DNA of 64,000 bases from IMG/VR virus record IMGVR_UViG_3300013800_000004, positions 1 to 64,000 of that record, one strand, 5' to 3'. The notes below the pieces were generated by a model, which was not told the origin of the DNA, ran no database searches, and saw nothing but the letters and a program-made list of their open reading frames with translations. This stretch comes from a virus. Its lineage: Duplodnaviria; Heunggongvirae; Uroviricota; Caudoviricetes. Shown piece by piece: positions 423-32,205 of this stretch. Position 1 is the stretch's first letter, and each line of letters opens with the position of its first letter. Both the position numbers and the translations under genes were made by a program.

Positions 423-478
423 GGGCCGTTGCATGGATTGTGGTTTGTGCTAGGATGCTCTCTGAAAGGCGAGTGTCC

Positions 479-5787: not shown

Positions 5788-5792
5788 CCCCA

Positions 5793-10272: not shown

Positions 10273-10280
10273 CTGTTTCC

Positions 10281-10366: not shown

Positions 10367-10379
10367 CTGTTTCATTCAC

Positions 10380-10452
10380 GTTGGGGTTAGCACAGTGGTT
10401 AGTGCGCCGGGCCGTGGCCCCGGATACGCGAGTTCGATCCTCGTACCTCAAC
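10380..10452 (+). tRNA. tRNA-His (anticodon GTG) with encoded G-1 and discriminator C73
   Basis: G-1 then TTGGGGT/ACCTCAA acceptor, D-stem GCAC/GTGC, anticodon stem CCGGG/CCCGG, loop CCGTGGC (C33 unusual), T-arm GCGAG-TTCGATC-CTCGT. Confidence 0.55.
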
Positions 10453-10495
10453 CCCAAGCACCCCGACCCTGAAGAGGGTCGATGAAATCCACCAC

Positions 10496-10617: not shown

Positions 10618-11355
10618 ATGAGCCTCAAGTTGCACCAGTTGCTTGCCGTCGAGAAGACCATCAAGGCGGACGCCGCCAAGGCCCTCACGGACCTGTACCA
10701 CCGTATCGACAAGGGGAGCCTCCTCTCGGGCATCGCCCGCAGCTACCGCCCCCTCACGGACGACGGGGAGCGCCTCCCCCCGGAGAGCACCCTCCTCCAG
10801 CTTCGCGTGGAGCAGGAGATTCCCCCGGTGCTGGCGACCCTCGTCACCCTCTACGACACGATGCTCCGTAAGGAGCACGCCAACCTCCGGGCGAAGGCCG
10901 ACGTGGTCATCGACGGCACGGTGATCCTCTCCGACGTGCCCGTCTGCGCCCTCCTCTTCCTGGAGAAGCAGACCACGGACCTCAAGGCTTTCATCCAGCG
11001 GCTCCCGACGCTGGACCCGAGCGAGACGTGGGCCCACGACCCCGCCCAGAACTGCTGGGCGACGGCGCCCAACGAGACGGCTCGCACCAAGAAGGTGCCC
11101 GTGGTGCTCACCAGGGCCCAGGCCACGGACAAGCACCCGGCCCAGACGGAGCTCGTCCACGAGGACCGGGTGGTGGGCTACTGGTCCACGACCAAGTTCA
11201 GCGGGGCCATCTCGGCTGAGCGCAAGGCGACCCTCATCGCCCGCATCGGCAAGCTCTCCGCGGCCATCAAGGTCGCCCGCGAGGGCGCCAACGCGGTCCC
11301 CGTCGGGGAGCAGAAGATGGGCGAGGTCATCCTGAACTACCTGTTCGGGGCCTGA
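10618..11355 (+). CDS. Hypothetical protein (245 aa)
   Basis: ATG with AAAAGGAGA SD. Protein-like composition; the antisense ORF 10399..11415 is an R/G/D-rich artefact. Confidence 0.6.
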   Translation: MSLKLHQLLAVEKTIKADAAKALTDLYHRIDKGSLLSGIARSYRPLTDDGERLPPESTLLQLRVEQEIPPVLATLVTLYDTMLRKEHANLRAKADVVIDGTVILSDVPVCALLFLEKQTTDLKAFIQRLPTLDPSETWAHDPAQNCWATAPNETARTKKVPVVLTRAQATDKHPAQTELVHEDRVVGYWSTTKFSGAISAERKATLIARIGKLSAAIKVAREGANAVPVGEQKMGEVILNYLFGA

Positions 11356-15352: not shown

Positions 15353-15408
15353 TCGTCCTATCTTGGGGCGTAGAGGAGACATGGCACCCCGTAAAATGCC
15401 GCGAACAT

Positions 15409-15424
15409 GGGGCGTAACACCACC
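15409..15424 (+). promoter_or_regulatory. Class-1 variant GGGGCGTAACACCACC (upstream copy of a tandem pair before the large vWA gene)
   Basis: Motif recurrence. No ATG at +7; AAGGAG follows. Confidence 0.3.
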
Positions 15425-15498
15425 GGCACCAAGGAGTTCATCGAGTTCTTGGAACTGGTTCGTGGTGGGTTGAACTCCAAGGGCTGATCCGTGCCTCC

Positions 15499-15514
15499 TT
15501 GGGCGTAATAAAAG
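15499..15514 (+). promoter_or_regulatory. Class-1 motif TTGGGCGTAATAAAAG, 18 nt upstream of the ATG at 15532 (with AGGAG SD)
   Basis: Motif recurrence. Confidence 0.4.
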
Positions 15515-15531
15515 CAGGAGAAGTCACACCA

Positions 15532-18000
15532 ATGACCCAGATCACCAAGTTTCCCATTCGCAATTTCAAGGGCGTACCCACCAAGTTTTTCCGCTGTGAG
15601 CGGGAGGACCAGACCACCCAAACGGTGGTGGAGGGGCGCAAGCCCAGCCATCATATTTTGTGCGTGGACAGGAGCGGAAGTATGTACGGCACCATCGGGG
15701 ACGTGAAGAGCACCATCGAGAAGCTCCTCACCCTCACCGAGTTCCGCGACCCGTCCCTCCGCATCTCGCTCATCACCTACTCCAGCCAGGGCGACGTGAA
15801 GCTCCACTTCAAGGGCGTCACCGTGGCCGACGTGATGGCGACCGACTCCCCGCAGCTTCGCGAGATCCGCTCGATCCGCGCCACGTCGATGACGTGCATC
15901 TCGCAGGGATTGGCGCTGGCCGAGTCGCTGATCGACGACGCCGACGTGACGTGCATCACGCTGCACACCGACGGGTACGCCAACGACCGCAGCCCGATGG
16001 CGGAGTCCACGGCCATCAAGGCCACGGTCGAGAAGCTCAAGAAGCACCCCGGTGTGTTTGTGAACTGCATCGGCTACGGCGACTGGTGCGACTACAACCT
16101 CCTGAGCTCCATCTCCAACGCCCTCTCGGGCGTGTGCATCCAGGCCCGCGGCATCGCTCAGGTGTACGAGGCCGTGTACAACACCACGAAGCTCCTCGCG
16201 GGCTCTGTGGCCCCGGCCCTGGAGATCCCCCGCGGCAAGGCCAGCTACGCCTTGTTCGTCTCCACCAGCGCCCGCAAGGTGCTCGGGAGCTCGGACAACC
16301 TTCTCGTTCAGGGCCTCGCGGCGACGGACGACAAGACCGCGTACCGCCTGTACGAGATCACGGAGGCCGAGTACACGGCGCTCCATGCCCCGGTGAACGG
16401 TGAGGACGCCCCGACCGAGCCGGTGCTGGCCTACGCTCGCACCCAGATCGCTGAGGGCCGCCTGAACGCGGCCAAGTACGCCCTCGTCCAGACGCGCTGC
16501 CACGACCTCATCGGCGGGCACGCCAAGGCGCTTGTGGCCTCGGACATCGCGGCCTTCGCGGCGGCGACCGAGGAGTACCTGTTCGACCGCAAGGTGTTCA
16601 CGCCCACGACCAACTACGGCCTCGGCACCACGGGTCCGTCGGTCCTGGAGGTGCTCACGTACCTCAACGCGCACACCGAGAACCTCTCGGTGAACCTCCC
16701 GGCCCTCGCCTCGGGCTACCGTCGCCGGGGTGTCAAGCGCATCCCCGGCACCCGCCTCGCGGACGGATCGGTCGAGGAGCCCACGGTCTTCTCCAAGAGC
16801 CGCGAGGGCGACGGCTGGGTCAAGGTCAACGGCTTCGAGCTCAACCGCAACACCGCGACGGCCAACATGCTGCTCTCGCAGCCCCTCGACCTGTTCGCCA
16901 AGGGGTCTACCACCCGCATCGCCAGCGTCGCGGGCGTGTCCCTCGACAACCTCCGCAGCTTCAACAACTACACCATCGTGGGCGACGGGTCGCTCAACGT
17001 CGCCAGCCTCACCCTCCGCACGGCGGACCAGAAGGTGATCGACGGCCTCCGTGCGATGGGCCTCAACGTCTCGCAGCCCAACGTGCGCGCCGACGCCAAG
17101 GCTGGTGAGCCCTTCAACATCATCCTCTCGGGCCTCCCGCTGGTGGACTACGACCTGAACGTCGGCGGCGTGGACATCACCACGGTCCAGAACCTCACGC
17201 GCCTCACGGTGCTGAGCAAGATCCTCAACGGCATGGTGAAGGGTGACGCCTCGGGGTTCACCACCGAACAGGTGGCCGAGCTCAAGGCCCACTACCTCAC
17301 CCCGGCGCTGAACTTCAGCCCGCCGACGACCACCAGCTACGCCAAGCTGGAGGATGCCCTCGCCACGGGCGAAGTGGACACGAAGCTCTCGTTCAAGGTC
17401 AACGTCGGCACCGCGGCCATCACGGGGGCGGACAAGCTCCGGTCGGGCAACGAGTACCTCCAGCGCCGGTTCACCCTCTCCCTTCTCGGCAAGGACGTGG
17501 AGAAGCCCACGCTCGACATGATCACCCTCCCCGACACCGTGTGGGGCGTGAAGAAGCTCACTGCCCGCACCACCCTCGACGCGGTGGACGAGGTCTCCTA
17601 CCCCATCTACGAGGGCATCCTGGGCCTCGGGACGGGCACGGAGCTCAAGGCGCTCCTGACGCTGGTTGGGTGCGTGGACCCGGACCTCTGGATCGCGAGC
17701 CTCAAGGGCGAGAACGCCAAGGCGAGTGTCAAGGACGCCATTCGGTTCGTGGACCTCGCCATCGAGCGCGCCTACAACGTGATCCGCCCGCTGGCCTTCT
17801 ACGTCGGTGCGACCGGGCTGGTCCCTGACACCCTCGCGGCCAAGGCGTACAACGCCGAGGACTTCGCGGCGGCCTACCCTGAGGCGAAGCTCTCCAAGGC
17901 CGAGAAGGAGGAGGGGTCGTTCTTCGTCCTCCCCGACGGCACGGTCCTCAGCGTGTTTGTGAAGGCGGAGCTCTTCAGCACCGCCTCCACCATCGCTTGA
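15532..18000 (+). CDS. Large vWA domain protein (822 aa)
   Basis: ATG with AGGAG SD, downstream of GGGCGTAATAAAAG. N-terminal VDRSGSMYG…ITYSSQG…ITLHTDGYAND is a vWA/MIDAS domain. The antisense ORF 15358..18054 is an artefact. Confidence 0.7.
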   Translation: MTQITKFPIRNFKGVPTKFFRCEREDQTTQTVVEGRKPSHHILCVDRSGSMYGTIGDVKSTIEKLLTLTEFRDPSLRISLITYSSQGDVKLHFKGVTVADVMATDSPQLREIRSIRATSMTCISQGLALAESLIDDADVTCITLHTDGYANDRSPMAESTAIKATVEKLKKHPGVFVNCIGYGDWCDYNLLSSISNALSGVCIQARGIAQVYEAVYNTTKLLAGSVAPALEIPRGKASYALFVSTSARKVLGSSDNLLVQGLAATDDKTAYRLYEITEAEYTALHAPVNGEDAPTEPVLAYARTQIAEGRLNAAKYALVQTRCHDLIGGHAKALVASDIAAFAAATEEYLFDRKVFTPTTNYGLGTTGPSVLEVLTYLNAHTENLSVNLPALASGYRRRGVKRIPGTRLADGSVEEPTVFSKSREGDGWVKVNGFELNRNTATANMLLSQPLDLFAKGSTTRIASVAGVSLDNLRSFNNYTIVGDGSLNVASLTLRTADQKVIDGLRAMGLNVSQPNVRADAKAGEPFNIILSGLPLVDYDLNVGGVDITTVQNLTRLTVLSKILNGMVKGDASGFTTEQVAELKAHYLTPALNFSPPTTTSYAKLEDALATGEVDTKLSFKVNVGTAAITGADKLRSGNEYLQRRFTLSLLGKDVEKPTLDMITLPDTVWGVKKLTARTTLDAVDEVSYPIYEGILGLGTGTELKALLTLVGCVDPDLWIASLKGENAKASVKDAIRFVDLAIERAYNVIRPLAFYVGATGLVPDTLAAKAYNAEDFAAAYPEAKLSKAEKEEGSFFVLPDGTVLSVFVKAELFSTASTIA

Positions 18001-18014
18001 CCCACACACCCCTC

Positions 18015-18056
18015 GCCGGGCCGGTCGGAGTTGTCCGACCGGCCCGGTCCTCATTT
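18015..18056 (+). terminator. Rho-independent-like terminator after the large vWA gene
   Basis: GCCGGGCCGGTCGGA-gttg-TCCGACCGGCCCGG (14-bp stem) followed by TCCTCATTTGG. Confidence 0.5.
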
Positions 18057-18690: not shown

Positions 18691-19061
18691 CTCACCCTCT
18701 CCTCCGGCCCATCGAACTCGTCGTGGGCTTTGTGGTTTTGCTGTCCGTCGCTTCGGTGCCTGTTCCCAGGAGAGCGAACGTGACACCGCTTTCACCGCTG
18801 CCAGAGGGGTACACAGCAAGGGTCGAGAACCTTCAACAGCAGACGCAGACTCAAGCACAGGAAGTCACCTCCCTCATGGAGGAGACACGTCGGCTGTCCG
18901 AGGCCCTTCGTGTGCAGCAACAAAACGAGGCGGCCCGACCACGTCGCACGACCCGCAGTCCGGGTATTGTGACCCCACATGAACCCACCCGGACGAACCC
19001 CGCCCTTTCGGCAGGTGTTCGGAGACCGGCAAGCCCACCTGTAGGTGGGTCGGGTCTGTAG
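18687..19061 (+). CDS. Membrane-anchored coiled-coil protein (124 aa), architecturally similar to 18385..18690
   Basis: ATGA start/stop overlap. TM LVVGFVVLLSVASV followed by a coiled-coil. Confidence 0.5.
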   Translation: MTHPLLRPIELVVGFVVLLSVASVPVPRRANVTPLSPLPEGYTARVENLQQQTQTQAQEVTSLMEETRRLSEALRVQQQNEAARPRRTTRSPGIVTPHEPTRTNPALSAGVRRPASPPVGGSGL

Positions 19062-19071
19062 GAGAGAGACC

Positions 19072-19365
19072 ATGGAAGCACCCGTCGGTGAAGTGAAGAA
19101 GTTGACTGAGGAAGAGGCCAAGCAGGTCCACGGCCTGCATCGTCAGGCGCAGGACATCGTCCACGCCATCGGTCAGGCAGAGGTCCACAAGGCCAAGCTC
19201 CTGTCCCAACTGGCGGATGTGGAGAAGAAGGCGCATGAGACCATCGACGCCTTCGGAGCTCGACTGGGCATTCCCCAGGGTGCTGCGTGGCATCTCACCT
19301 CGGACGGCACGGTGGTGATGATCGACCCCAAGACCGGCAGGCCCCTCCCCCCCTCCGACCAGTAG
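19072..19365 (+). CDS. Hypothetical helical protein (97 aa)
   Basis: Internal ATG of ORF 19045 with GGAGAGAG SD. Confidence 0.45.
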   Translation: MEAPVGEVKKLTEEEAKQVHGLHRQAQDIVHAIGQAEVHKAKLLSQLADVEKKAHETIDAFGARLGIPQGAAWHLTSDGTVVMIDPKTGRPLPPSDQ

Positions 19366-19394
19366 CTCGCCTATCCCACACCCTCGGGTGTGAG

Positions 19395-19595
19395 ATGCCG
19401 CACCTCCTACCATCGTCAGCATCGTCTTCGGGGGAAAGCCAAGGTCGAGGCCCACCGAGCGCAGTCTATTTCTTGGACGACACGGACATCGACGCCTTCT
19501 TTGACCTACTGGACGACTCCCTCGGTCTGCCCTTGGAAGTTCGCGCGGTGTCCGACGCTATCGTCCGAGTGATGGGGAGTGATGAAGAACGATAA
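19395..19595 (+). CDS. Small acidic hypothetical protein (66 aa)
   Basis: Internal ATG of ORF 19287..19595. The C-terminus overlaps the next gene's start. Confidence 0.35.
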   Translation: MPHLLPSSASSSGESQGRGPPSAVYFLDDTDIDAFFDLLDDSLGLPLEVRAVSDAIVRVMGSDEER

Positions 19596-20013
19596 ACCAA
19601 CCCTGGAGGCGTTCGGGAAGAAGTGGGTCAAGTATATCAAGGAGGAGGCTAAGAAGGACGCCCTGAAGAGCACCTTCATTCCCCGCACCAAGGAGTTCTA
19701 CAACAGCTTCTCCTACGCGGTTGAGGCCAACGGGATGGTGGTGATCTACTCCACTTGGGAGTGGCTGGAGATCATTACTGAGGGCACCCGAGGGAAGTAC
19801 AAAATGGCATGGCTCACCCAGGAGAGGGGGGTGGACGTAGTGCCGTTGGTGCAGAAGGACGGTACAGTTGCCCTGAGACGCACGCCGCTGACCATTGGCA
19901 AGGCGTGGGTCCACCCCAAGATCGCGAAGCACACGTTCATCAACCGTGCGTATGAACGGGCCCTGGGGGAGATCCTTGGTGAGGTAGTAGAGAAGGCCCT
20001 GGACACCAAATGA
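19579..20013 (+). CDS. Hypothetical protein (144 aa)
   Basis: ATG ORF with balanced composition and an overlapping start. Confidence 0.5.
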   Translation: MMKNDKPTLEAFGKKWVKYIKEEAKKDALKSTFIPRTKEFYNSFSYAVEANGMVVIYSTWEWLEIITEGTRGKYKMAWLTQERGVDVVPLVQKDGTVALRRTPLTIGKAWVHPKIAKHTFINRAYERALGEILGEVVEKALDTK

Positions 20014-20669
20014 CGCTAACCGCCAACGGTGAGGTGACCATCATCTGCCTCACGGATACTGTTCACCTTCACGACATTGGGGTGCACCTCACCCGGGGCC
20101 ATCGGGTGAACGTCCCCATGACACAGGCTATGAGGTCTCGGGACCTCTCCGCGGCCAAGCAGGACGGGACGGTGGCCATTCAGACCATTCGGTCGGCAGC
20201 GACCGTGCGGGCCCAGGAGTTCACCTCCTCGGACACCACCCACTCTCGCGCCCCTCGGCACAGCCCCGCCCCAGGGGGCCCCGATGCCCTTGCAGTGGCC
20301 ATCGAGCGCCTCACACAGGAGGTCCAGGGGATGCGTGTGGACATCACCCGTCTCCAGCAACAGCGTCCTGTAGCGCCCCCTGTAGCGCCCCCTGTTGTGG
20401 TGGACATCCTGGCAGAGCTCAAGGAATACGTTCGGACCCTGCCACAGGTTGGCCGCACCGAGTCGGCCCTCGAATCAATGAGGCCAACCCAACAGGTCCA
20501 GGGATTCCCCCCGGCGGTGGTGGCAGTCGAGGAGATGTTCATCCCCTCGAATCTCACAGGTGGGGCCACGGCATCAGACCTCAAGGTGGCGTCGGAGACG
20601 TCCACCAGTCCCCAACTCACGGGCACAGCGGAAGCTCTCAAGGCTGCACGGAAGAAGCGTGGGCGGTAA
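20010..20669 (+). CDS. Hypothetical protein (219 aa) with a PVAPPVAPPVVV repeat
   Basis: ATGA overlap with the upstream gene. Contains an internal 12-nt tandem repeat. Confidence 0.5.
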   Translation: MTLTANGEVTIICLTDTVHLHDIGVHLTRGHRVNVPMTQAMRSRDLSAAKQDGTVAIQTIRSAATVRAQEFTSSDTTHSRAPRHSPAPGGPDALAVAIERLTQEVQGMRVDITRLQQQRPVAPPVAPPVVVDILAELKEYVRTLPQVGRTESALESMRPTQQVQGFPPAVVAVEEMFIPSNLTGGATASDLKVASETSTSPQLTGTAEALKAARKKRGR

Positions 20670-20802
20670 CAAGGTGCCCCGGACCCGACCCCTGACCACA
20701 AGCCACCCGGCTGTGTATGGTAAGGGGTTCCGACCGAAGCCCAGTGTGGGTGCAACCGACTGTGTGCAGACGGACAATCAAGGAAGCAATGGGAGTTCAG
20801 TG

Positions 20803-21810
20803 ATGGCAGAGAAAATCAAGCAGGAACAACTCGGGGTGGGGTTGGACGTGGGCACGGGCAACGTGGTCTCGGCCCGCAAGACGGGCACTGGGGTCGAGAC
20901 TCGCCGGGTGCGTGACGCCTTCCTGGAGCTCCCCCTGGACGCCAAGAAGATGCTCAAGCTGGCCAACGTCTCCTACGTGGAGCGGACAGACGAGCTCCTC
21001 ATCCTCGGGGATGCAGCGATGGACACGGCCAATATCTTCGGCCGGGAGGCGCGACGGCCATTGTCTGCGGGGTTGGTGAGCTCCTCGGACATCGACGCCA
21101 TGGAGATCCTCGCGCTCCTCATCAAGAACGTCCTTGGAGACCCCCAGACTCCTGGGGAGCACTGTTACTTCTCGGTGCCTGCGTCCCCCGTGGACCGTCC
21201 GGGCCAGGACGTGATCTACCACCGCGGGGTGCTGGAGAAGATCGTTCGGGAGTGCGGGTACACCCCGACAGCGGGCAACGAGGCGATGGCCATCATCTAC
21301 GCCGAGACCGCCAAGGAGAACTTCTCGGGCATCGGTCTGAGCTTCGGGGCGGGGATGACCAACGTGGCGCTTGCACAGGGGACCATCGAGGGTCTGTCCT
21401 TCTCGGTGAGCCGTGGGGGTGACTGGATCGACAACGGCGCGGCCAAGTCCATCGGGAGCACGGCGTCCCGCATGTGCGCCATCAAGGAGAAGGGCGTGGA
21501 CCTGAACGCCCCGGTGGGTCGGGACCAGGAGGCCATCACCTTCTACTACCGCAACCTCATCGAGTACGCGATTGACCAGATCGCCATGCAGTTCATGGCG
21601 ATCCAGGGGAAGTTCTCCCTCCCCCGTCCGATCCCGATCATCGTGTCGGGAGGTACGTCCAAGGCGGGCGGGTTCCTCGACCTGTTCAAGGCGGTGTTCG
21701 AGAAGAAGCGCAAGAAGTTCCCCATCGAGGTGAGTGAGATCCGCGCCGCCACGGACCCCCTCAACGCCGTCGCCAACGGCCTGCTCATCCAAGCGATGCA
21801 GGAGGAGTGA
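20803..21810 (+). CDS. Actin-fold ATPase (ParM/MreB/Alp-like), 335 aa
   Basis: Internal ATG of ORF 20560 with GGGAG SD. Phosphate-1 GLDVGTGNVV, phosphate-2 GLSFGAGMTNVAL, adenosine IPIIVSGGTSKAGGFLDLF. The antisense ORF 20797..22116 is an artefact. Confidence 0.65.
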   Translation: MAEKIKQEQLGVGLDVGTGNVVSARKTGTGVETRRVRDAFLELPLDAKKMLKLANVSYVERTDELLILGDAAMDTANIFGREARRPLSAGLVSSSDIDAMEILALLIKNVLGDPQTPGEHCYFSVPASPVDRPGQDVIYHRGVLEKIVRECGYTPTAGNEAMAIIYAETAKENFSGIGLSFGAGMTNVALAQGTIEGLSFSVSRGGDWIDNGAAKSIGSTASRMCAIKEKGVDLNAPVGRDQEAITFYYRNLIEYAIDQIAMQFMAIQGKFSLPRPIPIIVSGGTSKAGGFLDLFKAVFEKKRKKFPIEVSEIRAATDPLNAVANGLLIQAMQEE

Positions 21811-21813
21811 CCG

Positions 21814-22194
21814 ATGACGGCGAAAGTCAAGGCCGACCTGAAAGACAGGCAGGAGATCCGTTTTGGGTCCGTCCCGGAGGCCACTGAGGCCGACGTGGAT
21901 GAGTGGGAGCTTGGGGCCCCCACCACGGAGGATGACAACACCCCCAGTGTCATCCTCGCGAACATGTTGGACACCCCCACCCCCAAGAAGGAACTCCGAG
22001 ACATCTCCGGTCGGGAGCGTGCCCCGACGGTGGTGGACCGACCTCGTCCGGGTGGCGGCACGCTCATCGGTGTGGGGTGTGAAGTATCCAAGGCCAGCCC
22101 CCCCAAGAAGCCCCATGGAAAGTCTGCGAAGATTCTGGTGACAGATGCAGAAGATGGGACTGTGATTCCCCAGTCGTGGAAGGACTACCTGTGA
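21814..22194 (+). CDS. Hypothetical protein (126 aa) immediately downstream of the actin-like gene; possible adaptor partner
   Basis: ATG 4 nt after the stop of 20803..21810. Acidic N-terminus, basic C-terminus. Confidence 0.45.
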   Translation: MTAKVKADLKDRQEIRFGSVPEATEADVDEWELGAPTTEDDNTPSVILANMLDTPTPKKELRDISGRERAPTVVDRPRPGGGTLIGVGCEVSKASPPKKPHGKSAKILVTDAEDGTVIPQSWKDYL

Positions 22195-22580
22195 GCTCAG
22201 ATTTCAAGCCTGAAAACATCAAGAAGATCGCACGAGACAAGGCGATGCAGTGGTACCGGCGCATCGAGGACCGCGTCGCACCCGTGGTGGTGTTCAGCGG
22301 TCTCATCGTCGAGAGCACCGCCAAGTGGGCCTCCCAGAAGCGGAACCAGCACACGACCTATTTCCAGGTCAAGCGGTTCCTGGAGAGCCCGTGCCGGAAC
22401 CTCGCTGGGTTCCTCCGTGCCCGCGAGGTCGAGGCCCTGTCGACCCTCTGGGGACTCTCGTGGGTGAGTCCCGGCTACTCGAACCCCCGAAAGGTCTACC
22501 CGGTCATCTGGGTAGGCAGGACAGCCCCGGACACCGTTGGAGACTCTCTGACGCCCCGCAAAGACTCCCCGACGGAGTGA
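22176..22580 (+). CDS. Hypothetical protein (about 130 aa; GTG at 22176 or 22191)
   Basis: GTG-start ORF overlapping the previous stop. Confidence 0.45.
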   Translation: MEGLPVSSDFKPENIKKIARDKAMQWYRRIEDRVAPVVVFSGLIVESTAKWASQKRNQHTTYFQVKRFLESPCRNLAGFLRAREVEALSTLWGLSWVSPGYSNPRKVYPVIWVGRTAPDTVGDSLTPRKDSPTE

Positions 22581-22638
22581 CAGGGCGGCACCGTCCCTAT
22601 CTCTCCTTTCGCCCCTGATCCATGAAGGACGGTGTGCC

Positions 22639-23757
22639 TTGTACTTCTACCTCACATCTGCCGTCAAAAATCGACTCATCCATGAGCTCCGTGGATACTG
22701 GGCGTCACACCCCAAGTACCAGGATCTCATCGACAACGTGCAGGGGAAGTACAGTTTCTCCCAACGGCCCCAGTACGGCATCATCCTCAAGACTGGGAGT
22801 GCCAATCGGGTGCAGTTGTCCGCGGACAACTTCGTGGGGACGGTGCAGAGCTTCGTCACCCTCGCCAAGATCCCGGGCTATCAGGGCACGTCGGTGGAGT
22901 GGGTGCGTGAGGACTCACTGGCCATCCAGGCCAACGGCGGGAGGTTCCCGACAGAGGCCGGGGTGTACTACTGCGAGATGACCGAGGACGACCAGTTCTA
23001 CGTGGACCCCCTCTTGGACGTTCGGGGGGAGGCTCTCACAATGGTCAATCGGGCGGAGGGGGTGCTCCAGCAGGTCCCCTACCCGGACAGTCTCCGTCTT
23101 GTGGAGCTTCCTGGTGGGGGCCTTGTCTCTCCGGCGAGCTACACCATCGGTGAGGATGGGGTGACGGTGTACTTTCGGGAGGCACTGCCCACTGGAGTAT
23201 CCGTGGTGGCGTACTACCGCTACACCGGGACCAGCACTGGCCCATGGGAAGCTAAGCCCTACACGGGCTACAACAAGGCCATTCCGGGGTGTGTGCTAGC
23301 CTTTGGTCGCCGGGCACAAAAGGGCGACCGCTTCGCGGTGGTGGTCACACCTACCCGTGAGGATGCCTACCTGGAGTACGGCGGCCGGTGGGACTTGAGC
23401 ATCGACATCGACGTGGTGGCGCGCGATGTGAACTCACAGATGGAGATCGCGGACCAGACAGCGATGTTCCTCTGGGCCACTCTCCGTGGCAACCTTGTGG
23501 ACCAAGGACTGGACATCACCGAGGTGAGCATGGGTGGGGAGAGCGAGGAGGTGTACGACGAGAACGGCGACGACTACTTCTACAACTCCACCATCTCCAT
23601 GACCGTCCAGACCGATTGGTTCGCCTTCGTGCCCATCCTCCCGAGAATCCTGACCGTCTCGGAGACAGTGACAGGCCTCCCCCAGGGTCTCACCCTTGCG
23701 GCCTACCGTGACCCGTTCTTCGGGGCCAAGTTCGCCAGCTACGAGACTGTGAGCTAA
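22639..23757 (+). CDS. Hypothetical protein (372 aa), possibly structural
   Basis: TTG start with AAGGACGG SD 8 nt upstream. β-rich composition. Confidence 0.5.
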   Translation: MYFYLTSAVKNRLIHELRGYWASHPKYQDLIDNVQGKYSFSQRPQYGIILKTGSANRVQLSADNFVGTVQSFVTLAKIPGYQGTSVEWVREDSLAIQANGGRFPTEAGVYYCEMTEDDQFYVDPLLDVRGEALTMVNRAEGVLQQVPYPDSLRLVELPGGGLVSPASYTIGEDGVTVYFREALPTGVSVVAYYRYTGTSTGPWEAKPYTGYNKAIPGCVLAFGRRAQKGDRFAVVVTPTREDAYLEYGGRWDLSIDIDVVARDVNSQMEIADQTAMFLWATLRGNLVDQGLDITEVSMGGESEEVYDENGDDYFYNSTISMTVQTDWFAFVPILPRILTVSETVTGLPQGLTLAAYRDPFFGAKFASYETVS

Positions 23758-23758
23758 C

Positions 23759-24196
23759 ATGCCCACGTACCGATTCCAGTGTGAGAAGTGCGGTCTGAAC
23801 TTCACCGCCCAACGGGCTGTGGACACCACCTCCACCAAGTGTGACTGTGGAGAGGTGGCCCCTCGGGTACTCCCCCATGGCGTGAACGTCACCGTGTCAG
23901 GCGGGAACGTGGACACCCGCACGGAGTCCGTCGGGATCTCGGCCATCGACTACGGGTTTGACCGTGCTGTGGGGGAGTCCGCCAAGAAGAACTGGAATGG
24001 CATCCGAAGTCGCCAGCGAGACAAGCTCGATGTGGTTCGGGCGAACGGGGTGACGGGGTGGGATCTGACCAGGAGACCGGACGGCACCTACGGGGTGATG
24101 AGCCCCGAACAGCGTGCTGCCAGTGAGCGGTCCCGTGCGTTCCACTTCAAGATGGTGGATCACGGACGGGCGATCACCGGGAAGAAGCCGGGCTAG
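23759..24196 (+). CDS. FmdB-type zinc-ribbon protein (145 aa)
   Basis: MPTYRFQCEKCGLNF…KCDCG, the CxxC…CxxC FmdB regulatory zinc-ribbon signature. Confidence 0.5.
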   Translation: MPTYRFQCEKCGLNFTAQRAVDTTSTKCDCGEVAPRVLPHGVNVTVSGGNVDTRTESVGISAIDYGFDRAVGESAKKNWNGIRSRQRDKLDVVRANGVTGWDLTRRPDGTYGVMSPEQRAASERSRAFHFKMVDHGRAITGKKPG

Positions 24197-24510
24197 TCCC
24201 AGCGGTTGGACTCGGGGCTGTTGTCCGGGTCGGGGTAGCCCCGGCTCGTCCCGAACTGCTCCCGCCACTTGTCCTGCGACTCCATGAGGATGGAGTAGTT
24301 GTAGCCGTGGCCGGGGCGCTCCTCGACGGAGACGAACCACTCGGGCTTCCCGGCGCTGATGCCCACCTCCACCTTGGAGATCTTGCAGAGACCTCCCTGG
24401 AAGTCGTCCGCGCCGTGGGACATGTACAGAGACGTGCCCACGTACACCTCATCCCCGACCTTGGGGCGGGGGGTGGTGGGGAGCTTGGTGTCTGGGTCGG
24501 TGGGGGCCAT
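24193..24510 (-). CDS. Hypothetical protein (106 aa)
   Basis: Internal Met MAPTDPDTKLP… of ORF 24193..24666, directly preceded by GGGCGTAACCCAAGC. Confidence 0.5.
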   Translation of the reverse strand: MAPTDPDTKLPTTPRPKVGDEVYVGTSLYMSHGADDFQGGLCKISKVEVGISAGKPEWFVSVEERPGHGYNYSILMESQDKWREQFGTSRGYPDPDNSPESNRWD

Positions 24511-25361: not shown

Positions 25362-26270
25362 ATGTCCCGTTTCAGTACCAAGTTCCTGTTCCTCATGGGA
25401 GTCCTCGCCAGCACCATCGCCTGCACCACGGTGGAGCCCGGTCAGGTCGGGATCGAGATCCGCTTCGGCCAGATCCAGGGGGGCGTCCTTCCTCCGGGCA
25501 TGTACGGCACGGTTATCTCCGGGGTGAAGACCCTGTCCACCCAGACCCAGACCTACACCATGGCGGGCGCGGGCACCGAAGGAGCCGGTGATGGCAGCGT
25601 GAACGTGCTGGCTCGCGATCAGCTTCCCGTGAAGCTCGACGTGTCGGTCATGTTCCACCTCAATGGTGATCGGGCCATCTCCGTCTTCCGTTCCTTCGGG
25701 GAGCGGTACGATAACAACATCGTCCACCCCCTCGTCCGCACGGCGGTCCGCGACGCTGCCAGCGAGTTCACCGCCGTGGACCTCATCGACCGCCGTGCGG
25801 AGCTTCAGGCTCGCATGACCACCCTGGTCCGGGGCACGCTGGCTTCAACCCTCCAGGGCCGTCGGGTGAACGCGGATGCTGTGGTCGTGGACAACATCCT
25901 CATCCGCAACATTGATCTTCCCCAGAGTATCGACGAGGCCATCGCCAACGTCCAGCGCCAGCGGCAGATGACGGCGGCGAGCACCCAGGCGAACCTCACG
26001 GCCCAGCAGGAAGCCGCGCGTGCCCTCACTGTCGCCAACGGCGAAGCCGCCGCCCTCATCGCCCGTACCCGCGCCGACGCCGAGATGCTCACGATCCGTA
26101 CGACGGCCCAGGCGAACGCCAACCGTGCCTTGTCGGCCTCCCTCACCCCGGAGTTCCTTCAGTACGAGCGCATCCAGGCCACCCGTGCGGTCCTGGGGTC
26201 GAACGGCACCCGGACGGTGTTTCTCCCGGCGGGGATGTCCCCCAACATGCTGATGAGCGCCCCCCAGTGA
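25362..26270 (+). CDS. SPFH/band-7 (prohibitin/HflK-C-like) domain lipoprotein (302 aa)
   Basis: AAGGAG SD downstream of GGGCGTAATACACC. Lipoprotein signal MSRFSTKFLFLMGVLASTIAC. SPFH core EPGQVGIEIRFGQI…LPVKLDVSVMFHL… with a C-terminal coiled-coil. Confidence 0.6.
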   Translation: MSRFSTKFLFLMGVLASTIACTTVEPGQVGIEIRFGQIQGGVLPPGMYGTVISGVKTLSTQTQTYTMAGAGTEGAGDGSVNVLARDQLPVKLDVSVMFHLNGDRAISVFRSFGERYDNNIVHPLVRTAVRDAASEFTAVDLIDRRAELQARMTTLVRGTLASTLQGRRVNADAVVVDNILIRNIDLPQSIDEAIANVQRQRQMTAASTQANLTAQQEAARALTVANGEAAALIARTRADAEMLTIRTTAQANANRALSASLTPEFLQYERIQATRAVLGSNGTRTVFLPAGMSPNMLMSAPQ

Positions 26271-26852: not shown

Positions 26853-29800
26853 ATGCCCAGAGACATCACAGGTGGATACGCGCCCCCCGGCGTGTACACG
26901 CAGACCTTCTTCGGTGCACCTCCAACGGTGCCCGGGGTTCCCCCCCTGGTCCCCCTTTACATCGGGACGGGGTCGGAGATCCTGGTCCAGACCAACCTCC
27001 CGGTGGTCCGTGGGAGTTCGTCGTCCGTCGATCAGCAGATCGTCAACGAGGACGAGACGGGGCGCGCGGTGACCAACATCGCCCCCTCGGGTCTTGTCAC
27101 CCTGGGGGCCTTTGACGGCACCTTCAACCGTTTCCAGGTCAGGAACTTCCCCCTGGTCAACGGGGACGGGTCGGGGACGACCGCGGTGGACACCTCGGCG
27201 GTGTCTGTCACCCTCAACGGCGACCCTGTGGTGGTCCTTGGGATTGACGGTGCCAAGGGCATCGTTGAAATCTCGGAGTACCCGACGGCGACAGATGTCG
27301 TGCTGGTCACCTACTACTTCGACCGCACGGACACCCTGGTGACGGACACTGTGTCCGCACAGGTGACGCCAACGGCTGCGATCCTCAACGGCCGCACCGG
27401 TCAGAACTTCACCTTCACGTCGGGCACCAACCAGTTCATGCTCTCGGTGGACGGCCTCCCCGAGGTGACAGTCACCCTCCCCATCTCGACGGTGACGGGC
27501 GCGGTGGTGGTTGCGACCATCAACGGGACGGCGGGCATCGGGTCGCTGGTGGCAAGCACCTTTGTGGACAACCTCGGTCAGACCTGTGTGCGCCTCACGG
27601 CAGACAAGTCCATCGTGGTCGGTGCGGGCTCCGCCAACGATGTGATCGGGTTCGTGGCCAACGATGCCACCTCGCGGAACGCCACGTTCGTGGTGTTCAA
27701 CCACCCCATCGTGAACGGCAGCGGCGGTGGTGTTACCACCACCAACCCGCTGGACGTGCGGGTGCTGGTGGACTCCGTCCAGGTGACCCCGACGGCGGTC
27801 AACGGTCGTACAGGATCGGTCACTCTCCCGTTTGCGCCCAAGCGCGGGAGCGTGGTGACGATCCAGTACTACTTCAACTCCTGGCAGGACACGTTCGACT
27901 ACCTTGCCAACACGGGCGTCACGGCGATCACCCGGGCGGGCATCACGGCGACATCGAACGGGGCGGGCCTGTTCATCCAGGGTGCGGACTACATCCTCAA
28001 GAACGACACCATCGTGTGGGGCACCTCGGTGCTCGTGAACACGGGGCTGCACACGGAGGGTTCGACTGCCTTCGGTAGCACCCAGGTGACGGCGAGCTTG
28101 GTGGACAACCAAGCGTTCATGGCGGAGTGTTCCCGGGTGCTCACCACCTCGGGCACGATCACCACGGAGTCCAAGACTCAGTTCCAGCTTCCGTTCCAGC
28201 CCACAACGGGCAACGGTCGGAACTCCCCCTTGGGCACGACCAACTACCTCACTGTGTCCAACGGCCGCATGGACCTCCCGACGGACCAGCCCGACCTTGT
28301 GGTGGCCTACTGGGGATTCGGCGTCCAGGATGCCTACCAGCGCGGCCCCGTCACGGTGACCAAGGTGGACAGCGCCACCAGCACGATCACCCTGGCTGGG
28401 GATGTGCCCGTGGGCGCGACGGTGTACGCGACCTTCTACTACAACACCCTGACGGACCAAGCGTTCATCGGGTCGTCCCGTGGGTACACCCTCACCTGTG
28501 CGGCATCAGGCACCTCGGGTGCGGGTACGTACACGATCACGGACGGGTTGAACCTCCCGGTCTATGGCGTGACCTTCCTGGGCAAGGGAGCAGCCCTGAA
28601 CACCATCGAGGTGATGTTCCCGAGTGGTTCGGAGTTCGTCTCCGATGCCCGGCTGGAGAACGGGGCCCCCACCCTGGAGACGGTGACCGTCCAGTTTGCG
28701 TCCACAGACGAGACTCCGGCCAAGTTCACCGTTCCGGGCGCGAGCCCGTACAACACAGTGTCGGGCCAGTCCTCGAACCTTCGGGTGACCATCGACGCCG
28801 TCGCTGGCACCACGGGCGCGGCGGGTGGCATCAACCTCACGGCCCCCACGGGTTCGAGCCGGGGTGGTGCATTCGCATCCATGCTGGGTGACGAGGCCCC
28901 CTACACGGCGGCTTCCGGTGAGGTCACCTTCCCCATCACGGCGGGGGTGGACGACACCGTCTCGGTCCTCGTGGACGGGGTGTCCATCACGGCAACCGCC
29001 GCAGCGGGTGGGGCTCAGGACCTCACGGCTTTCCGTGATGCCATCAACACCGCGGTGCTGGCCACCGACCCGTACCTCACCGGGGCAGGCAGCTTCCCCA
29101 GTGGTTACACGGTCGTGGCGAGCGAGTACGACCGCCTCAACCTCCACTACACGGGGTCGGTCGGGGGTGCTTCGGGCAACCAAGTTCTCACCTTCACCCC
29201 CGCGGCGTACACGACCGTGGCCCTCTTGGCCACCGAGATCAACACCCAGCTTGCCACCATCAATGGCCTGGGCGGCCTCGGCGCCTCGGTGACCTGTGCC
29301 GCCACGGCAGACAGCAAGCTCCGGTTCACCATGGCCCTCGCCCTGGCGATGAGCACCCTCACCGCGGTGGGCCTCCCGACGGCGGGTGACACGGTCACCC
29401 TCAACGGCAAGGTGTACACGTTCACGTCGCCCCTTGGAGGCGCAGACGGAGACGTCCTCATCGGTCTGTCGGCCAGCGCGTGCCTCGACAACCTCATCGC
29501 TGCGATCACCCTGGGTGCAGGCTCGGGTGTGACATACGCGGCTGCGACCACACTCCACCCGACGATCACCGCGGAGGCCGGTCCTGGCGACACCCTGCGG
29601 GCATACGCCAAGAGCCGGGGCTCGGCGGGCAACCTCCTCACCACGGCGGCATCCATCACTGGCCCCTCGGTGTGGGGATGGACGGGTCTCACCCTCGCGG
29701 GTGGTGACGACGCAGGGTTCCTGGAGTTCATCAACGATGCCACCCCGGCGCGGGACTTCGCGATCATCGCGGGCATCGACGCGGGTGCTGCAACCCTGGG

Positions 29801-32129
29801 TGTCCAGACCAAGCTGGTCAACGGCCCCATCGCCAGCGTGTACACGGTCACGGCGGCATCGGGACGCAAGCCCTACGACCGCCTCGCCCTCCGCAACCGG
29901 GTGTTCCCTGGCAGCGGCAGCGTAGCCCCGTGGAGCGCCCTGTCTCAGATGGGAATCCAGTCCCAGGGTGGCAACGGTGCCGCTCTTGCGGGTCTGCCCT
30001 CGGGCCTCCTCGGTGAGGGTTCCTGGGGTGGTGGGGTCTACTCCCCGACTCTCCTTGGTTCGGTGGGCTGGAGTGGTGGGCAGGCGACCGGCTACGTAGA
30101 CGCACGGGACGGTCAGCCCAACGTGGTGTTCTACGACGGGTCGGGCACCGAGGCAGCCAACAACGTCCTCAAGCTCACCCTGAACGGGTCGCTGGTGACG
30201 GTGGTGTTCTCCGCCACCGACGTGGGCAAGGACACGGCCCTCGGCCCTGCATCTGTGTCCGGGTCGGTCCTTGGGGTCATCAACGCGGCGCTCCCCTCGG
30301 GTGTGGTCGCTGCCCAGGAGGGCGCATCCATCCGGTTCTACGCGACGGGCACCGAGTACTTCTCGGAGTCGGCCCAGTTCATCGTGGGTGACGGCTCGGC
30401 TAACGAGACCCTGGGTCTCACCTCGGGTGACGTGGCAGCAGCCACCCCGATCACGGCCAAGCAACTGGCTTCGACCCTGACGAGCCACATCGCCACGGGG
30501 GACTTCGCGGCGTGGATGTTCCTCCCGTCCACCTCGTCCGCGGGCTACTTCTCGGCCAAGGCTCTCGCCACCACGGTGACCGGAGCCACGGGCGATGAGT
30601 ACCTGTCTCTCCAGAGCAAGACCCTCGGGACTGCGTCGAGCTTCTTGTTCGCCAACGCCACCACCAACGACGCCCTCCGCACGAGGTCGGGTCTGGGTGT
30701 GGTTTCGGGTGATGGTAGCTCGGGGGAGCCCGCACTCAACGGGTTCTTCGTCACCTCGTCGGATCCCACCAGCGGATCGGGCAGCGCGGACACCTCGGTG
30801 TTCAACGCGGGGGTCGGTCAAGACGGGTTCGTGGGTCAGACCTACGTGGACGACGTGACGGGTCTGACCTTCACGGTCCTCCCCCGTGCGGGCGGGCTGT
30901 CGTACCCCACGGGTGCAACGTCCACCCTGTCGTTCCGGGTGTCCACCAACTTCGTGACGGATGCCAACATCCCCACGCTGGCCATCCCCGGTCTGGAGCT
31001 CGTGGTGGCCAACACCGTGGGTGTCCCGGTGGGGGACACGGCCCTGGTGGAGACCTTCAAGCGCGGAGGGTCGGAGCCCAACATCGGGGAGGTGTACTAC
31101 GTCTCGTACAACTACCTGAAGACGGACTTCTCCCCCAAGCTGTTCTCCCGTCTCTCGGACGTGGTGAACGAGTATGGGCCGGTGTCCCCGGACAATCCCC
31201 TGTCCCTCGCCGCGTACTTCGCGTTCCTCAACGGTTCGTCGGTCATCGGGTGCCAGCAGGTGCCCAAGACCCCGGGCCTGTCCACGGCGTCCGAAGCCGC
31301 ATACACGGCAGCCATCGACCTGTCCTCGGGGCCGTCGCTCCCTGGCTTTGTGTCCCCCGCAGTCCTGGTGGTCCTCACCCCGGCCACGGAGAACCTCGCC
31401 AAGTACATGACGATCCACTGCGACGTGCAGAGCTCGATTCGCTACAAGGCGGAGCGCACGGCGATCTTCGGGTTCGGTTCGGGCACCCGCACCGATCAAG
31501 CCCTCGCCATCGCGGCAGTGGCGGGAGACACCAGGGTCCGGTTCGTGTACCCTGACATCGCATCCGTGTCCCTCACCGACGTACTGGGCGTCACCCGGAC
31601 CTACTTGGTGGACGGTCGGTACCCGGCGGCAGCAGTCGCCGCGGCCACCACGGCGTCCACCATCGACCCGGCCACCCCGTGGGAGTCGCGTCAGATCGTC
31701 GGGTTCACGGCCCTCAACCGCCGCCTCGACGCGGTCACGGCCAACCAACTGGCAGTGGGCGGTATCACGGTGCTGGAGAACCGGCCCCCGTTCATCCGCA
31801 TCCGCCACGGCGTCACCTCGGACGTGACCAACATCCTCACCAAGACCCCGACCGTGATCCAGATCGCGGACGAGATCCAGAAGAGGGTGCGGGCAGTCTG
31901 CTCCCCGTTCATCGGGGCCAAGTTCCTCCCGCAGATTCTCGGCCAGATCGAAGGCCGCCTGTCGGAGATGTTCAAGCAGGCCGTCGCAGAACAGATCATC
32001 ACCACGTTCACCGGCATCACCGTGAACGTGGACCCGACGGACCCGACGGCGGTCATCGTGGAGGCGTACTACCAGCCCGTCTGGCCGCTCCTCTACGTGC
32101 AGATTTCGCTCCGCGTCAGCGCACAGTAG
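26853..32129 (+). CDS. Giant (1758 aa) T/G/S/V-rich structural protein, possibly a tail sheath with large insertions
   Basis: ATG with GGAG upstream. N-terminal …GGYAPPGVYTQTFF resembles the sheath PGVY motif. C-terminus …ITVNVDPTDPTAVIVEAYYQPVWPLLYVQISLRV. It lies directly upstream of the tube, chaperone and tape-measure genes. The antisense ORFs 26748..28460 and 28506..32318 are artefacts. Confidence 0.6.
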   Translation: MPRDITGGYAPPGVYTQTFFGAPPTVPGVPPLVPLYIGTGSEILVQTNLPVVRGSSSSVDQQIVNEDETGRAVTNIAPSGLVTLGAFDGTFNRFQVRNFPLVNGDGSGTTAVDTSAVSVTLNGDPVVVLGIDGAKGIVEISEYPTATDVVLVTYYFDRTDTLVTDTVSAQVTPTAAILNGRTGQNFTFTSGTNQFMLSVDGLPEVTVTLPISTVTGAVVVATINGTAGIGSLVASTFVDNLGQTCVRLTADKSIVVGAGSANDVIGFVANDATSRNATFVVFNHPIVNGSGGGVTTTNPLDVRVLVDSVQVTPTAVNGRTGSVTLPFAPKRGSVVTIQYYFNSWQDTFDYLANTGVTAITRAGITATSNGAGLFIQGADYILKNDTIVWGTSVLVNTGLHTEGSTAFGSTQVTASLVDNQAFMAECSRVLTTSGTITTESKTQFQLPFQPTTGNGRNSPLGTTNYLTVSNGRMDLPTDQPDLVVAYWGFGVQDAYQRGPVTVTKVDSATSTITLAGDVPVGATVYATFYYNTLTDQAFIGSSRGYTLTCAASGTSGAGTYTITDGLNLPVYGVTFLGKGAALNTIEVMFPSGSEFVSDARLENGAPTLETVTVQFASTDETPAKFTVPGASPYNTVSGQSSNLRVTIDAVAGTTGAAGGINLTAPTGSSRGGAFASMLGDEAPYTAASGEVTFPITAGVDDTVSVLVDGVSITATAAAGGAQDLTAFRDAINTAVLATDPYLTGAGSFPSGYTVVASEYDRLNLHYTGSVGGASGNQVLTFTPAAYTTVALLATEINTQLATINGLGGLGASVTCAATADSKLRFTMALALAMSTLTAVGLPTAGDTVTLNGKVYTFTSPLGGADGDVLIGLSASACLDNLIAAITLGAGSGVTYAAATTLHPTITAEAGPGDTLRAYAKSRGSAGNLLTTAASITGPSVWGWTGLTLAGGDDAGFLEFINDATPARDFAIIAGIDAGAATLGVQTKLVNGPIASVYTVTAASGRKPYDRLALRNRVFPGSGSVAPWSALSQMGIQSQGGNGAALAGLPSGLLGEGSWGGGVYSPTLLGSVGWSGGQATGYVDARDGQPNVVFYDGSGTEAANNVLKLTLNGSLVTVVFSATDVGKDTALGPASVSGSVLGVINAALPSGVVAAQEGASIRFYATGTEYFSESAQFIVGDGSANETLGLTSGDVAAATPITAKQLASTLTSHIATGDFAAWMFLPSTSSAGYFSAKALATTVTGATGDEYLSLQSKTLGTASSFLFANATTNDALRTRSGLGVVSGDGSSGEPALNGFFVTSSDPTSGSGSADTSVFNAGVGQDGFVGQTYVDDVTGLTFTVLPRAGGLSYPTGATSTLSFRVSTNFVTDANIPTLAIPGLELVVANTVGVPVGDTALVETFKRGGSEPNIGEVYYVSYNYLKTDFSPKLFSRLSDVVNEYGPVSPDNPLSLAAYFAFLNGSSVIGCQQVPKTPGLSTASEAAYTAAIDLSSGPSLPGFVSPAVLVVLTPATENLAKYMTIHCDVQSSIRYKAERTAIFGFGSGTRTDQALAIAAVAGDTRVRFVYPDIASVSLTDVLGVTRTYLVDGRYPAAAVAAATTASTIDPATPWESRQIVGFTALNRRLDAVTANQLAVGGITVLENRPPFIRIRHGVTSDVTNILTKTPTVIQIADEIQKRVRAVCSPFIGAKFLPQILGQIEGRLSEMFKQAVAEQIITTFTGITVNVDPTDPTAVIVEAYYQPVWPLLYVQISLRVSAQ

Positions 32130-32205
32130 TGAAATCACTGGGGTTTCTGGTAACCCAGAGCTCCAGTTGACAGGGTGAGTGGGTTCATGGTAAGGTTCTA
32201 CTACC

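Follow-up and report, generated by a model that had tools for sequence, protein, structure and literature searches.

Results

Gene content of the locus

We analysed a 64,000-nt stretch of viral DNA (the window) that has a G+C content of 62.7%, carries its genes mostly on the plus strand and includes several giant open reading frames (ORFs). An Rfam scan of the window returned three tRNAs and nothing else. The window comes from a huge phage: it is syntenic with the phage record LR745208.1, its relatives lie on contigs of 213–473 kb, it encodes a neck protein of a tailed phage and its proteins match PHROG families. No lysogeny genes were seen within these 64 kb, and no evidence of a phage nucleus.

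The features around the gene of main interest are listed in Table 1. Independent gene calls on the near-identical contigs L022–L027 gave the same genes as in the window. A 439-aa ORF on the opposite strand (20797–22116) spans the actin gene and is an artefact of the high G+C content.

Table 1. Genes and other features of the window discussed in the text (strand as +, or. where none applies).
Feature	Position	Strand	Evidence and remarks
833-aa VWA-domain protein, upstream	15499..18000	+	Pfam VWA, VWA_2; phrog_2426; GC3 0.93
144-aa conserved block protein	19579..20013	+	no family match
219-aa protein directly 5' of the actin gene, here and in most of the clade	20010..20669	+	synteny in L001–L021, L029–L031
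133-nt spacer with one two-copy direct repeat	20670..20802	.	lineage-specific; possibly an internal promoter
Volactin-family actin homologue	20803..21810	+	335 aa; core of the finding; PF25216, AF2/Foldseek, dN/dS
126-aa acidic accessory protein	21814..22194	+	starts 3 nt past the actin stop; 6 homologue clusters
129-aa basic accessory protein	22191..22580	+	start overlaps the stop of the 126-aa ORF (GTGA); called in L022–L027
372-aa virion neck/connector protein	22639..23757	+	AF2 pLDDT 83; Foldseek; constant downstream neighbour of the actin gene
145-aa Zn-ribbon protein, conserved in the block	23759..24196	+	Pfam Zn_ribbon_8 E 2.5e-7, just below cut-off; synteny
SPFH/Band 7 protein	25362..26270	+	Pfam Band_7 E 1e-28; phrog_200
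1758-aa giant protein	26853..32129	+	Phage_sheath_1C (tail-sheath C-terminal domain), below threshold

A phage-borne actin of the volactin family

The initial annotation had described the 335-aa protein as a phage-encoded actin-fold ATPase carrying all three motifs of the fold, and this description was borne out. The protein begins with MAEKIKQEQLGVGLDVGTGNVV, and the motifs lie as quoted at residues 13–22 (GLDVGTGNVV), 178–190 (GLSFGAGMTNVAL) and 279–292 (IIVSGGTSKAGGFL). In the Pfam scan it matched PF25216 ("Volactin") with an E-value of 6.1e-76 and 256.4 bits against a curated cut-off of 35 bits, a match far beyond chance, and residues 12–331 aligned to profile positions 3–321 of 321, i.e. 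the full length. At E ≤ 0.1 the same scan returned besides Volactin only two weak matches, to FtsA (E 0.019, below cut-off) and to DUF505; the ParM/StbA, MreB (PF06723, MreB_Mbl), actin and HSP70 families gave no Pfam match. Neither the actin homologue nor its small neighbours matched PHROGs, NCBIfam or PADLOC, and searches of PDB sequences, whether started from the protein alone or from profiles A1 and A2, yielded nothing meaningful.

BLASTP aligned the protein over its full length to a homologue from Haloferax mucosum (38% identity, E 2e-84). A genome scan run with alignment A4, which is narrower than the very diverse alignment A3, found Haloferax, Halorubrum and Haloarcula loci at 36–39% identity. 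By these sequence comparisons the gene product belongs to the volactin family of prokaryotic actins, here carried by a phage. The phage protein is a distinct subfamily of this known family in a new genomic setting.

Predicted fold and nucleotide-binding site

The AF2 model of the actin homologue, built on 38 homologues, has the actin topology, at an only moderate model confidence (pLDDT 76, pTM 0.78). The first motif is held in the hairpin E11–16/E21–27 at the position of the phosphate-1 loop, the second in the hairpin E176–181/E186–192 at the position of the phosphate-2 loop, and the third falls at the adenosine loop position, where strand E277–282 is followed by helix 291–305. When compared with solved structures by Foldseek, the model was closest to MamK (TM-score up to 0.68) and MreB/Mbl, followed by FtsA, EutJ, PilM, crenactin, BeeR, actin and DnaK/Hsp70. 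TM-scores against solved actins were between 0.5 and 0.68, and identity to the MamK and MreB structures was only 14–19%. No solved structure of the volactin family itself was identified by sequence or fold search. The Foldseek comparison suggested in the initial annotation thus placed the filament formers MamK and MreB/Mbl ahead of FtsA, PilM and DnaK. Since MamK and MreB ranked first, the best matches were not the Hsp70 and sugar-kinase ATPases that the annotation had set against its own reading. Its proposed likeness to ParM/Alp/MreB-type proteins held for the fold, with MamK and MreB/Mbl nearest, but not for ParM or Alp, to which there was no match by sequence.

A search of the viral structures in BFVD found no close relative, and the best matches were Hsp70-like proteins at 10–15% identity. 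This outcome is favoured by default, because BFVD holds few prokaryotic actins. The Hsp70 signature and substrate-binding domain were both absent from the actin homologue, which has no Pfam HSP70 match and, at 335 aa, no room for a second domain. On plain reading of the sequence, neither terminus has an obvious amphipathic or hydrophobic segment that could bind membranes.

The actin fold together with conserved phosphate-1, catalytic Glu, phosphate-2 and adenosine motifs was recovered by AF2, Foldseek and alignments A1 and A3. Motifs common to the family are GxDxGT, S-F-G-x-G-M-x-N, RGGDWID and SGGTS. In nearly the whole family, including the phage protein (S180), Ser replaces the first Asp that the phosphate-2 motif has in actin, MreB and ParM. 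The alignment columns G17, R37, R85, G90, E160, G182, G184, D207, D210, K228, E229 and G283 are invariant in distant phage and cellular members, which indicates that the nucleotide-binding site is intact.

Homologues, selection and inteins

Sequence searches returned more than 3100 homologues of the actin. The protein is 78% identical to that of LR745208.1 ("uncultured phage", 485 kb), where the gene order is alike, and 33% identical to that of LR756511.1 ("uncultured phage", 595 kb). Other close homologues lie on the 213–473-kb contigs mentioned above and on 19 IMG/VR viral contigs. Cellular homologues are widespread in bacteria, among them Planctomycetota (43–46% identity), Omnitrophota and Desulfosarcina. 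In a neighbour-joining tree the phage clade formed one branch apart from Planctomycetota/Omnitrophota and from Halobacteria, and LR756511.1, in which the volactin gene lies near a primase, formed a long separate branch. L002 is a separate lineage; the related phage protein there has a weak Pfam match to MreB_Mbl over residues 58–128. Because the phage sequences form a branch apart from the Halobacteria clade, they are a paralogous clade and not orthologues of volactin (HVO_2015).

Within the phage clade the actin and the neck protein had dN/dS values of 0.09 and 0.10, respectively. The actin gene is under strong purifying selection and is strongly conserved in the clade. A decaying or non-functional gene was also considered and dropped on account of the dN/dS of 0.09 and the invariant motifs.

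At least 18 representative homologue clusters carry inteins, at no fewer than four sites in the phosphate-2 and GGDWID loops; the actin of L020 is an intein-bearing example. Inteins characteristically occupy conserved functional sites of their host proteins, and the sites seen here fit a functional importance of the ATP-binding loops.

The actin gene has a fixed place in a virion gene block

The 372-aa protein encoded downstream of the actin gene had no family match by sequence. Its predicted structure matched phage necks and connectors in Foldseek: the neck protein of phage 812 (8qkh_G, E 1.6e-8), the E217 neck (8fvh_M), the Bas63 connector (9mt4_F) and the necks of Sf14, Pa193, Pam3 and XM1. 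By tblastn, this neck gene lies 3' of the actin gene in 21 of 23 phage-clade loci, down to 52% actin identity; the loci without a match were L010 and the short L028, and L002 is a separate lineage. Three distant neck homologues (48–49% identity) on contigs of 230–437 kb all had a Volactin gene directly upstream, and two of these loci carried the Zn-ribbon gene and a 1660–1740-aa protein downstream.

Upstream of the actin gene, the 144-aa protein is 35–66% identical in L001–L010, L020 and L021 and 29–37% identical in L029 and L030. We had suspected from its sequence that it is an HK97 gp10-type neck protein; Pfam gave no support for this at E ≤ 1. The 219-aa protein that follows keeps in its C-terminal part a "..FIP[ST].." motif, an acidic stretch and the basic tail ALKxxRKK. 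Further downstream, the 1758-aa protein matched Phage_sheath_1C only below threshold (E 0.0017, 18.8 bits against a cut-off of 26.9), and an ORF of 1660–1740 aa occupies its position in distant members of the clade.

In public loci, tblastn recovered the order VWA gene, small ORFs, 144-aa gene, ~210-aa gene, actin gene, variable gap, 372-aa neck gene and 145-aa Zn-ribbon gene. The place of the actin gene is fixed within the neck/tail block, in the order ~150-aa protein, ~210-aa protein, actin, neck, Zn-ribbon and giant protein.

Cellular homologues (≤ 46% identity) lack the phage neighbourhood. The neighbours of the Planctomycetota, Desulfosarcina, Omnitrophota and Halorubrum genes, which include a DUF3419 protein, a ParA-like ATPase, UbiA and an HTH protein, have no gene in common with the phage block and gave no functional lead. 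Three contigs from metagenome-assembled genomes (MAGs), L029–L031, with 54–71% actin identity, do have the phage neighbourhood, and from the common actin-neck gene order they are evidently phage DNA in wrong bins. The MAG bins holding clade contigs disagree with one another (Thermoplasmata, Legionellales, Methylobacter).

A variable slot downstream of the actin gene

The initial annotation had noted a small charged protein encoded just after the actin gene and had proposed it as a ParR-like adaptor. The 126-aa ORF is indeed there and is acidic (pI 5.05, 22 D+E and 18 K+R). Its protein had no Pfam, PHROG, NCBIfam or PADLOC match and is probably disordered and built of short conserved motifs, among them VVDRPRPGGG and IPxxWKDYL. 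The conserved short motifs and a dN/dS of 0.34 indicate that it is a real gene. The adaptor assignment was rejected on distribution, adjacency and evolutionary rate. Only six homologue clusters were found among 5.8 billion sequences, all in phages whose actin is at least 90% identical, and tblastn found no match in 21 public phage loci (two phage records and 19 from IMG/VR). In two relatives (L111 and the contig carrying P0393) an ORF of 178–199 aa separates the actin gene from the 126-aa homologue. The protein also evolves much faster than the actin (dN/dS 0.34 vs 0.09). For the 129-aa protein that follows, homologues were found only in L111–L113 (40–64% identity), and dN/dS was 0.6. Pfam detected no DNA-binding fold in these small downstream ORFs.

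Across relatives, between 20 and 1330 bp separate the actin gene from the neck gene. In L001, L005 and L006 this gap is only 20–66 nt long and holds no ORF. Some small ORF fills this slot in many lineages, and in other relatives its content is unrelated small acidic ORFs, a NUDIX protein, or endonucleases of the GIY-YIG or TnsA-like kind, homing endonucleases being among the occupants. The 126-aa and 129-aa ORFs are lineage-specific cargo in a hypervariable insertion slot, and the 126-aa protein is not a conserved partner of the actin.

The spacer upstream of the actin gene

The non-coding DNA of about 130 nt reported upstream of the actin gene was also found, as a 133-nt spacer after the ORF that ends at 20669. 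The short CTGTGT(A/G) repeats reported there are present in just two copies (20711 and 20760), above the 0.09 expected in 133 nt from the window-wide density, but they do not form an iteron array and are not conserved in relatives. Both lie inside a 13-nt direct repeat, CACCCGGCTGTGT at 20704–20716 and CAACCGACTGTGT at 20753–20765, with a spacing of 49 nt. The longer form CCGRCTGTGT was not enriched across the window (11 matches vs 16 expected at one mismatch). A scan of 19000–24500 for sigma-70-like promoters and terminators did no better than chance and gave none in the spacer.

Among the relatives checked, a comparable spacer was seen only in the near-identical L022–L027 and, with a different sequence, in L020. 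In most relatives (L001–L007, L010, L113) the ~210-aa gene stops 9–15 nt before the actin ATG, which makes the spacer and its repeats lineage-specific. They are missing from L113, whose actin is 92% identical.

Discussion

Proposed role of the phage actin

We propose that the gene encodes a polymerising phage actin that acts late in infection alongside virion assembly, a proposal to which we give an even chance. It agrees with the second role offered in the initial annotation, a phage-encoded cytoskeletal element, which we consider the best reading of the locus at that same even level of confidence. The protein would bind ATP and polymerise into dynamic filaments in the infected cell, like volactin, MamK and MreB; homology with volactin and closeness of fold to MamK and MreB suggest the polymerisation. 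It would be made together with the late structural genes, a timing suggested by gene order alone. The filaments may organise late events by positioning or moving capsids and tails, or may alternatively brace the cell while very large virions are built. As such they would be the actin-based analogue of the PhuZ spindle, which is made of tubulin. More tentatively, a large, globally distributed clade of huge phages might build its own actin cytoskeleton, with volactin-type filaments made alongside neck and tail proteins and used as tracks or scaffolds for assembling or moving very large virions. In this wider picture, which we regard as possible and rather doubtful, the short conserved C-terminal tails of the neighbouring small proteins (ALKxxRKK, IPxxWKDYL) could act as filament-binding adaptors.

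Comparison with known systems

In living Haloferax volcanii cells, volactin (VolA, HVO_2015) assembles into dynamic filaments, and it affects the switch between rod and disk shape (PMC10869688). The phage actin shares the PF25216 family with it and is 37–39% identical to haloarchaeal homologues. Whereas volactin is encoded on an archaeal chromosome, the phage gene lies in the neck/tail module of a huge phage, a cell-shape role is not implied for it, and many phage members carry inteins. Salactin, another haloarchaeal actin, polymerises with dynamic instability, and MamK and MreB are the actins closest to it (PMC10746226). MamK and MreB are likewise the best Foldseek matches of the phage actin, but at the low identity noted above and with no Pfam match to MreB_Mbl.

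ParM/ParR/parC of plasmid R1, Alp7A/Alp7R and AlfA/AlfB resemble the locus in placing an actin-fold ATPase on a mobile genome with a small gene directly 3'. Unlike these systems, the phage actin has no ParM-family match, no conserved adaptor and no centromere array, and its neighbours are structural genes. AlpC, encoded with AlpA by prophage CGP3 of Corynebacterium glutamicum, forms actin-like filaments that serve the phage; the prophage is temperate, and AlpC works with an adaptor in the replication and positioning of viral DNA (PMC4446434). The phage actin appears to belong to another family than AlpC, and it is found in a huge phage, in a structural block and with no conserved adaptor. The tubulin PhuZ spindle of nucleus-forming jumbo phages, a dynamic filament with roles in organising the infected cell and in capsid handling (PMC7950403, PMC13282480), is the closest functional analogue of the role proposed here. 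PhuZ has the tubulin fold and its gene lies outside the neck/tail module, whereas the phage gene encodes an actin fold and lies inside it.

Alternative explanations

An assembly chaperone or a virion protein would fit the place of the gene among structural genes just as well. The main rival is a non-polymerising ASKHA ATPase that serves as a chaperone or assembly factor, or as a minor virion component, and aids the large neck, tail or head proteins. The Hsp70 homologue of closteroviruses, which helps virion assembly, offers an analogy. Such a role would suit a gene that has the neck gene directly 3' and a giant sheath-like protein, VWA and SPFH proteins nearby, a placement that holds across the clade, and the best BFVD matches are viral Hsp70-like proteins; jumbo phages also carry assembly chaperones, including vWA-linked pairs (PMC7824862). 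Those BFVD matches, however, are at 10–15% identity in a library with few prokaryotic actins, and among solved structures MamK and MreB outrank DnaK. The protein is also a bare actin core of 335 aa with no substrate-binding domain and no Pfam HSP70 match, and volactin, the one family member studied in vivo, forms filaments (PMC10869688). We therefore judge this ATPase role rather unlikely, and the remodelling and partition roles considered next less likely still. In the first of these, the phage actin would copy or compete with a volactin-like cytoskeleton of the host and change cell shape or size to fit very large virions. The effect of volactin on Haloferax cell shape (PMC10869688) speaks for it, and the wide spread of homologues in bacteria (Planctomycetota at 43–46%, Omnitrophota, Desulfosarcina) makes a host counterpart plausible. 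The phage clade, however, is old and on its own branch with no sign of recent capture from a host, and remodelling does not explain the place of the gene in the neck/tail block. We consider it improbable.

The partition module that the initial annotation had put forward as the other possible role would require a ParMRC-like filament that pushes apart episomal copies of the phage genome, to which it is linked by an adaptor sitting on centromere repeats. In its favour, the protein has the fold of polymerising actins, a small acidic ORF does follow the gene directly, the slot holds some small ORF in many lineages, and the two-copy spacer repeat exceeds local chance expectation. Yet there are 6 homologue clusters for the candidate adaptor and more than 3100 homologues for the actin, the two genes are no longer neighbours in L111 and the contig carrying P0393, the 20–66-nt gap of L001, L005 and L006 has no ORF at all, and relatives fill the slot with GIY-YIG or TnsA-like endonucleases or a NUDIX protein. 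No DNA-binding fold was detected in the small ORFs, and L113 lacks the spacer and repeats although its actin is 92% identical. The protein has no ParM/StbA family match, and the constant neighbours are structural genes. The ParMRC model fails on adaptor, centromere and sequence family alike, and with neither a conserved adaptor gene nor a centromere the locus is not a ParMRC-type partition cassette; we give such a role hardly any probability.

Implications of a phage-encoded volactin

To our knowledge, the phage-made cytoskeletons described so far are for the most part the tubulins PhuZ and TubZ and a single prophage actin, AlpC. In the literature on phage cytoskeletons we found only the AlpC and PhuZ work, and the literature on huge and jumbo phages that we searched, including the main comparative papers and a 2026 review, mentions no actin homologue; this was a limited search and not proof of novelty. 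If the phage actin polymerises, it would show for a second time, and independently, that viruses use filaments of their own to organise the cytoplasm of bacteria. Should the wider picture of a clade-wide cytoskeleton be true, phage morphogenesis would have its first actin-based, virus-encoded machinery, standing beside the PhuZ tubulin spindle as an independent parallel. An actin family that has been characterised in one archaeon only is represented, throughout a clade of huge phages, by a strongly conserved gene; the phage members are small and easy to express and could serve structural studies of the volactin family. The repeated invasion of ATP-binding loops by inteins is, as far as we know, unusual for an actin, and it marks the gene as important to the phage.

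Inteins and homing endonucleases at the volactin gene

Many phage volactin genes contain inteins (at least 18 of the 150 top representative clusters). In these clusters the protein reaches ~470–800 aa, with insertions of ~115–440 aa (P0121, P0126, P0129, P0130, P0146 and P0162, among other representative proteins), and wherever a junction was read out completely it takes the form C...HN followed directly by C/S. At least four insertion sites are used, after S180, G182, N187 and R204, and every one lies within the nucleotide-binding loops. An intein-bearing volactin from one relative, L020, is a single unbroken ORF of 735 aa with an HNH-like motif inside the intein.

Free-standing homing endonucleases concentrate on both sides of the actin gene in relatives, and these hot spots are seen even between phages whose actins are 92–93% identical. 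The enzymes are of GIY-YIG+NUMOD3, TnsA-like and Vsr/DUF559-like types; in one relative, a DNA methyltransferase gene is also among the flanking genes.

C-terminal tails of the neighboring proteins

The 126-aa protein encoded downstream of the actin gene ends in K-I-x-V-x-D...I-P-x-x-W-K-D-Y-L. The same tail occurs on small Zn-ribbon-like proteins, otherwise unrelated to it, in the slot between actin and neck-protein genes of relatives. It looks like a movable short putative binding motif. The ~210-aa protein upstream of actin is poorly conserved, yet its C-terminal design is kept clade-wide (in the window and in L001–L031): '..FIP[ST]x[IL]..' is followed by ~25 residues that are acidic or Ser/Thr-rich, and the basic tail ALKxxRKK comes last. 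The ~53% subclade also has, downstream, a small ORF (MPYYKGVYF...) that is unrelated to this protein but likewise terminates in an acidic stretch and a poly-Lys/Arg tail.

Divergent, fused and duplicated volactins

LR756511.1 (595 kb), from a second huge-phage lineage, carries a Volactin-family gene that is divergent (33% identity, 228 bits) and sits in a different neighborhood, with a DnaG-type primase nearby. This lineage may have acquired volactin independently. Some unannotated database homologues, presumably cellular, join the volactin domain to other modules: P0125 is two actins in tandem, P0138 has a long charged N-terminus of coiled-coil appearance, and the C-terminal sequence of P0158, judged by eye, looks like a Wzz/BY-kinase-type module. 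Omnitrophota MAG loci (L048, L051) hold volactin in two adjoining copies, and a scan of L048 alone found a ParA/MinD-like ATPase upstream of them.

Other genes in the window

Three very long minus-strand ORFs (15358–18054, 20797–22116 and 28506–32318) were rejected as genes; lying antisense to real genes, they are artefacts that the high G+C content produces. Of the five giant ORFs, one shows a sheath C-terminal domain at a sub-threshold score and another a glucosaminidase domain (residues 997–1111); family matches were not found for the remaining three. The tRNA genes lie just upstream of the DUF7873 gene, with a slight overlap reported.

Coordinates of features in the window and in relatives' loci (L numbers)
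Feature	Location	Remarks
tRNA cluster	window 10187–10456	n = 3: Tyr-GTA, Tyr-GTA, His-GTG
DUF7873 gene	window 10618–11355	245 aa; GC3 0.96 (extreme)
VWA protein	window 15499–18000	GC3 0.93
C-terminal design, upstream protein	window 20500–20669	
Tail, 126-aa protein	window 22140–22194	
Giant ORFs	window 26853–32129, 37679–41128, 44495–49690, 50786–55183, 56467–61893	+ strand; 1149–1808 aa
ROS/MucR-type zinc-finger regions	window 320–1957, 32206–33468	two proteins
GIY-YIG endonuclease-like ORF	window 34480–35250	amid structural region
Actin-flank hot spots	L014:6900–7676; L008:4300–5187; L113:5528–6166; L111:690–2391; L112:2111–3001 and 5502–5846	
Zn-ribbon-like slot proteins	L112:4015–4512; L113:4544–5056	share tail of 126-aa protein
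Intein-bearing volactin	L020:7001–9208	
Divergent volactin	L002:8001–9020	LR756511.1
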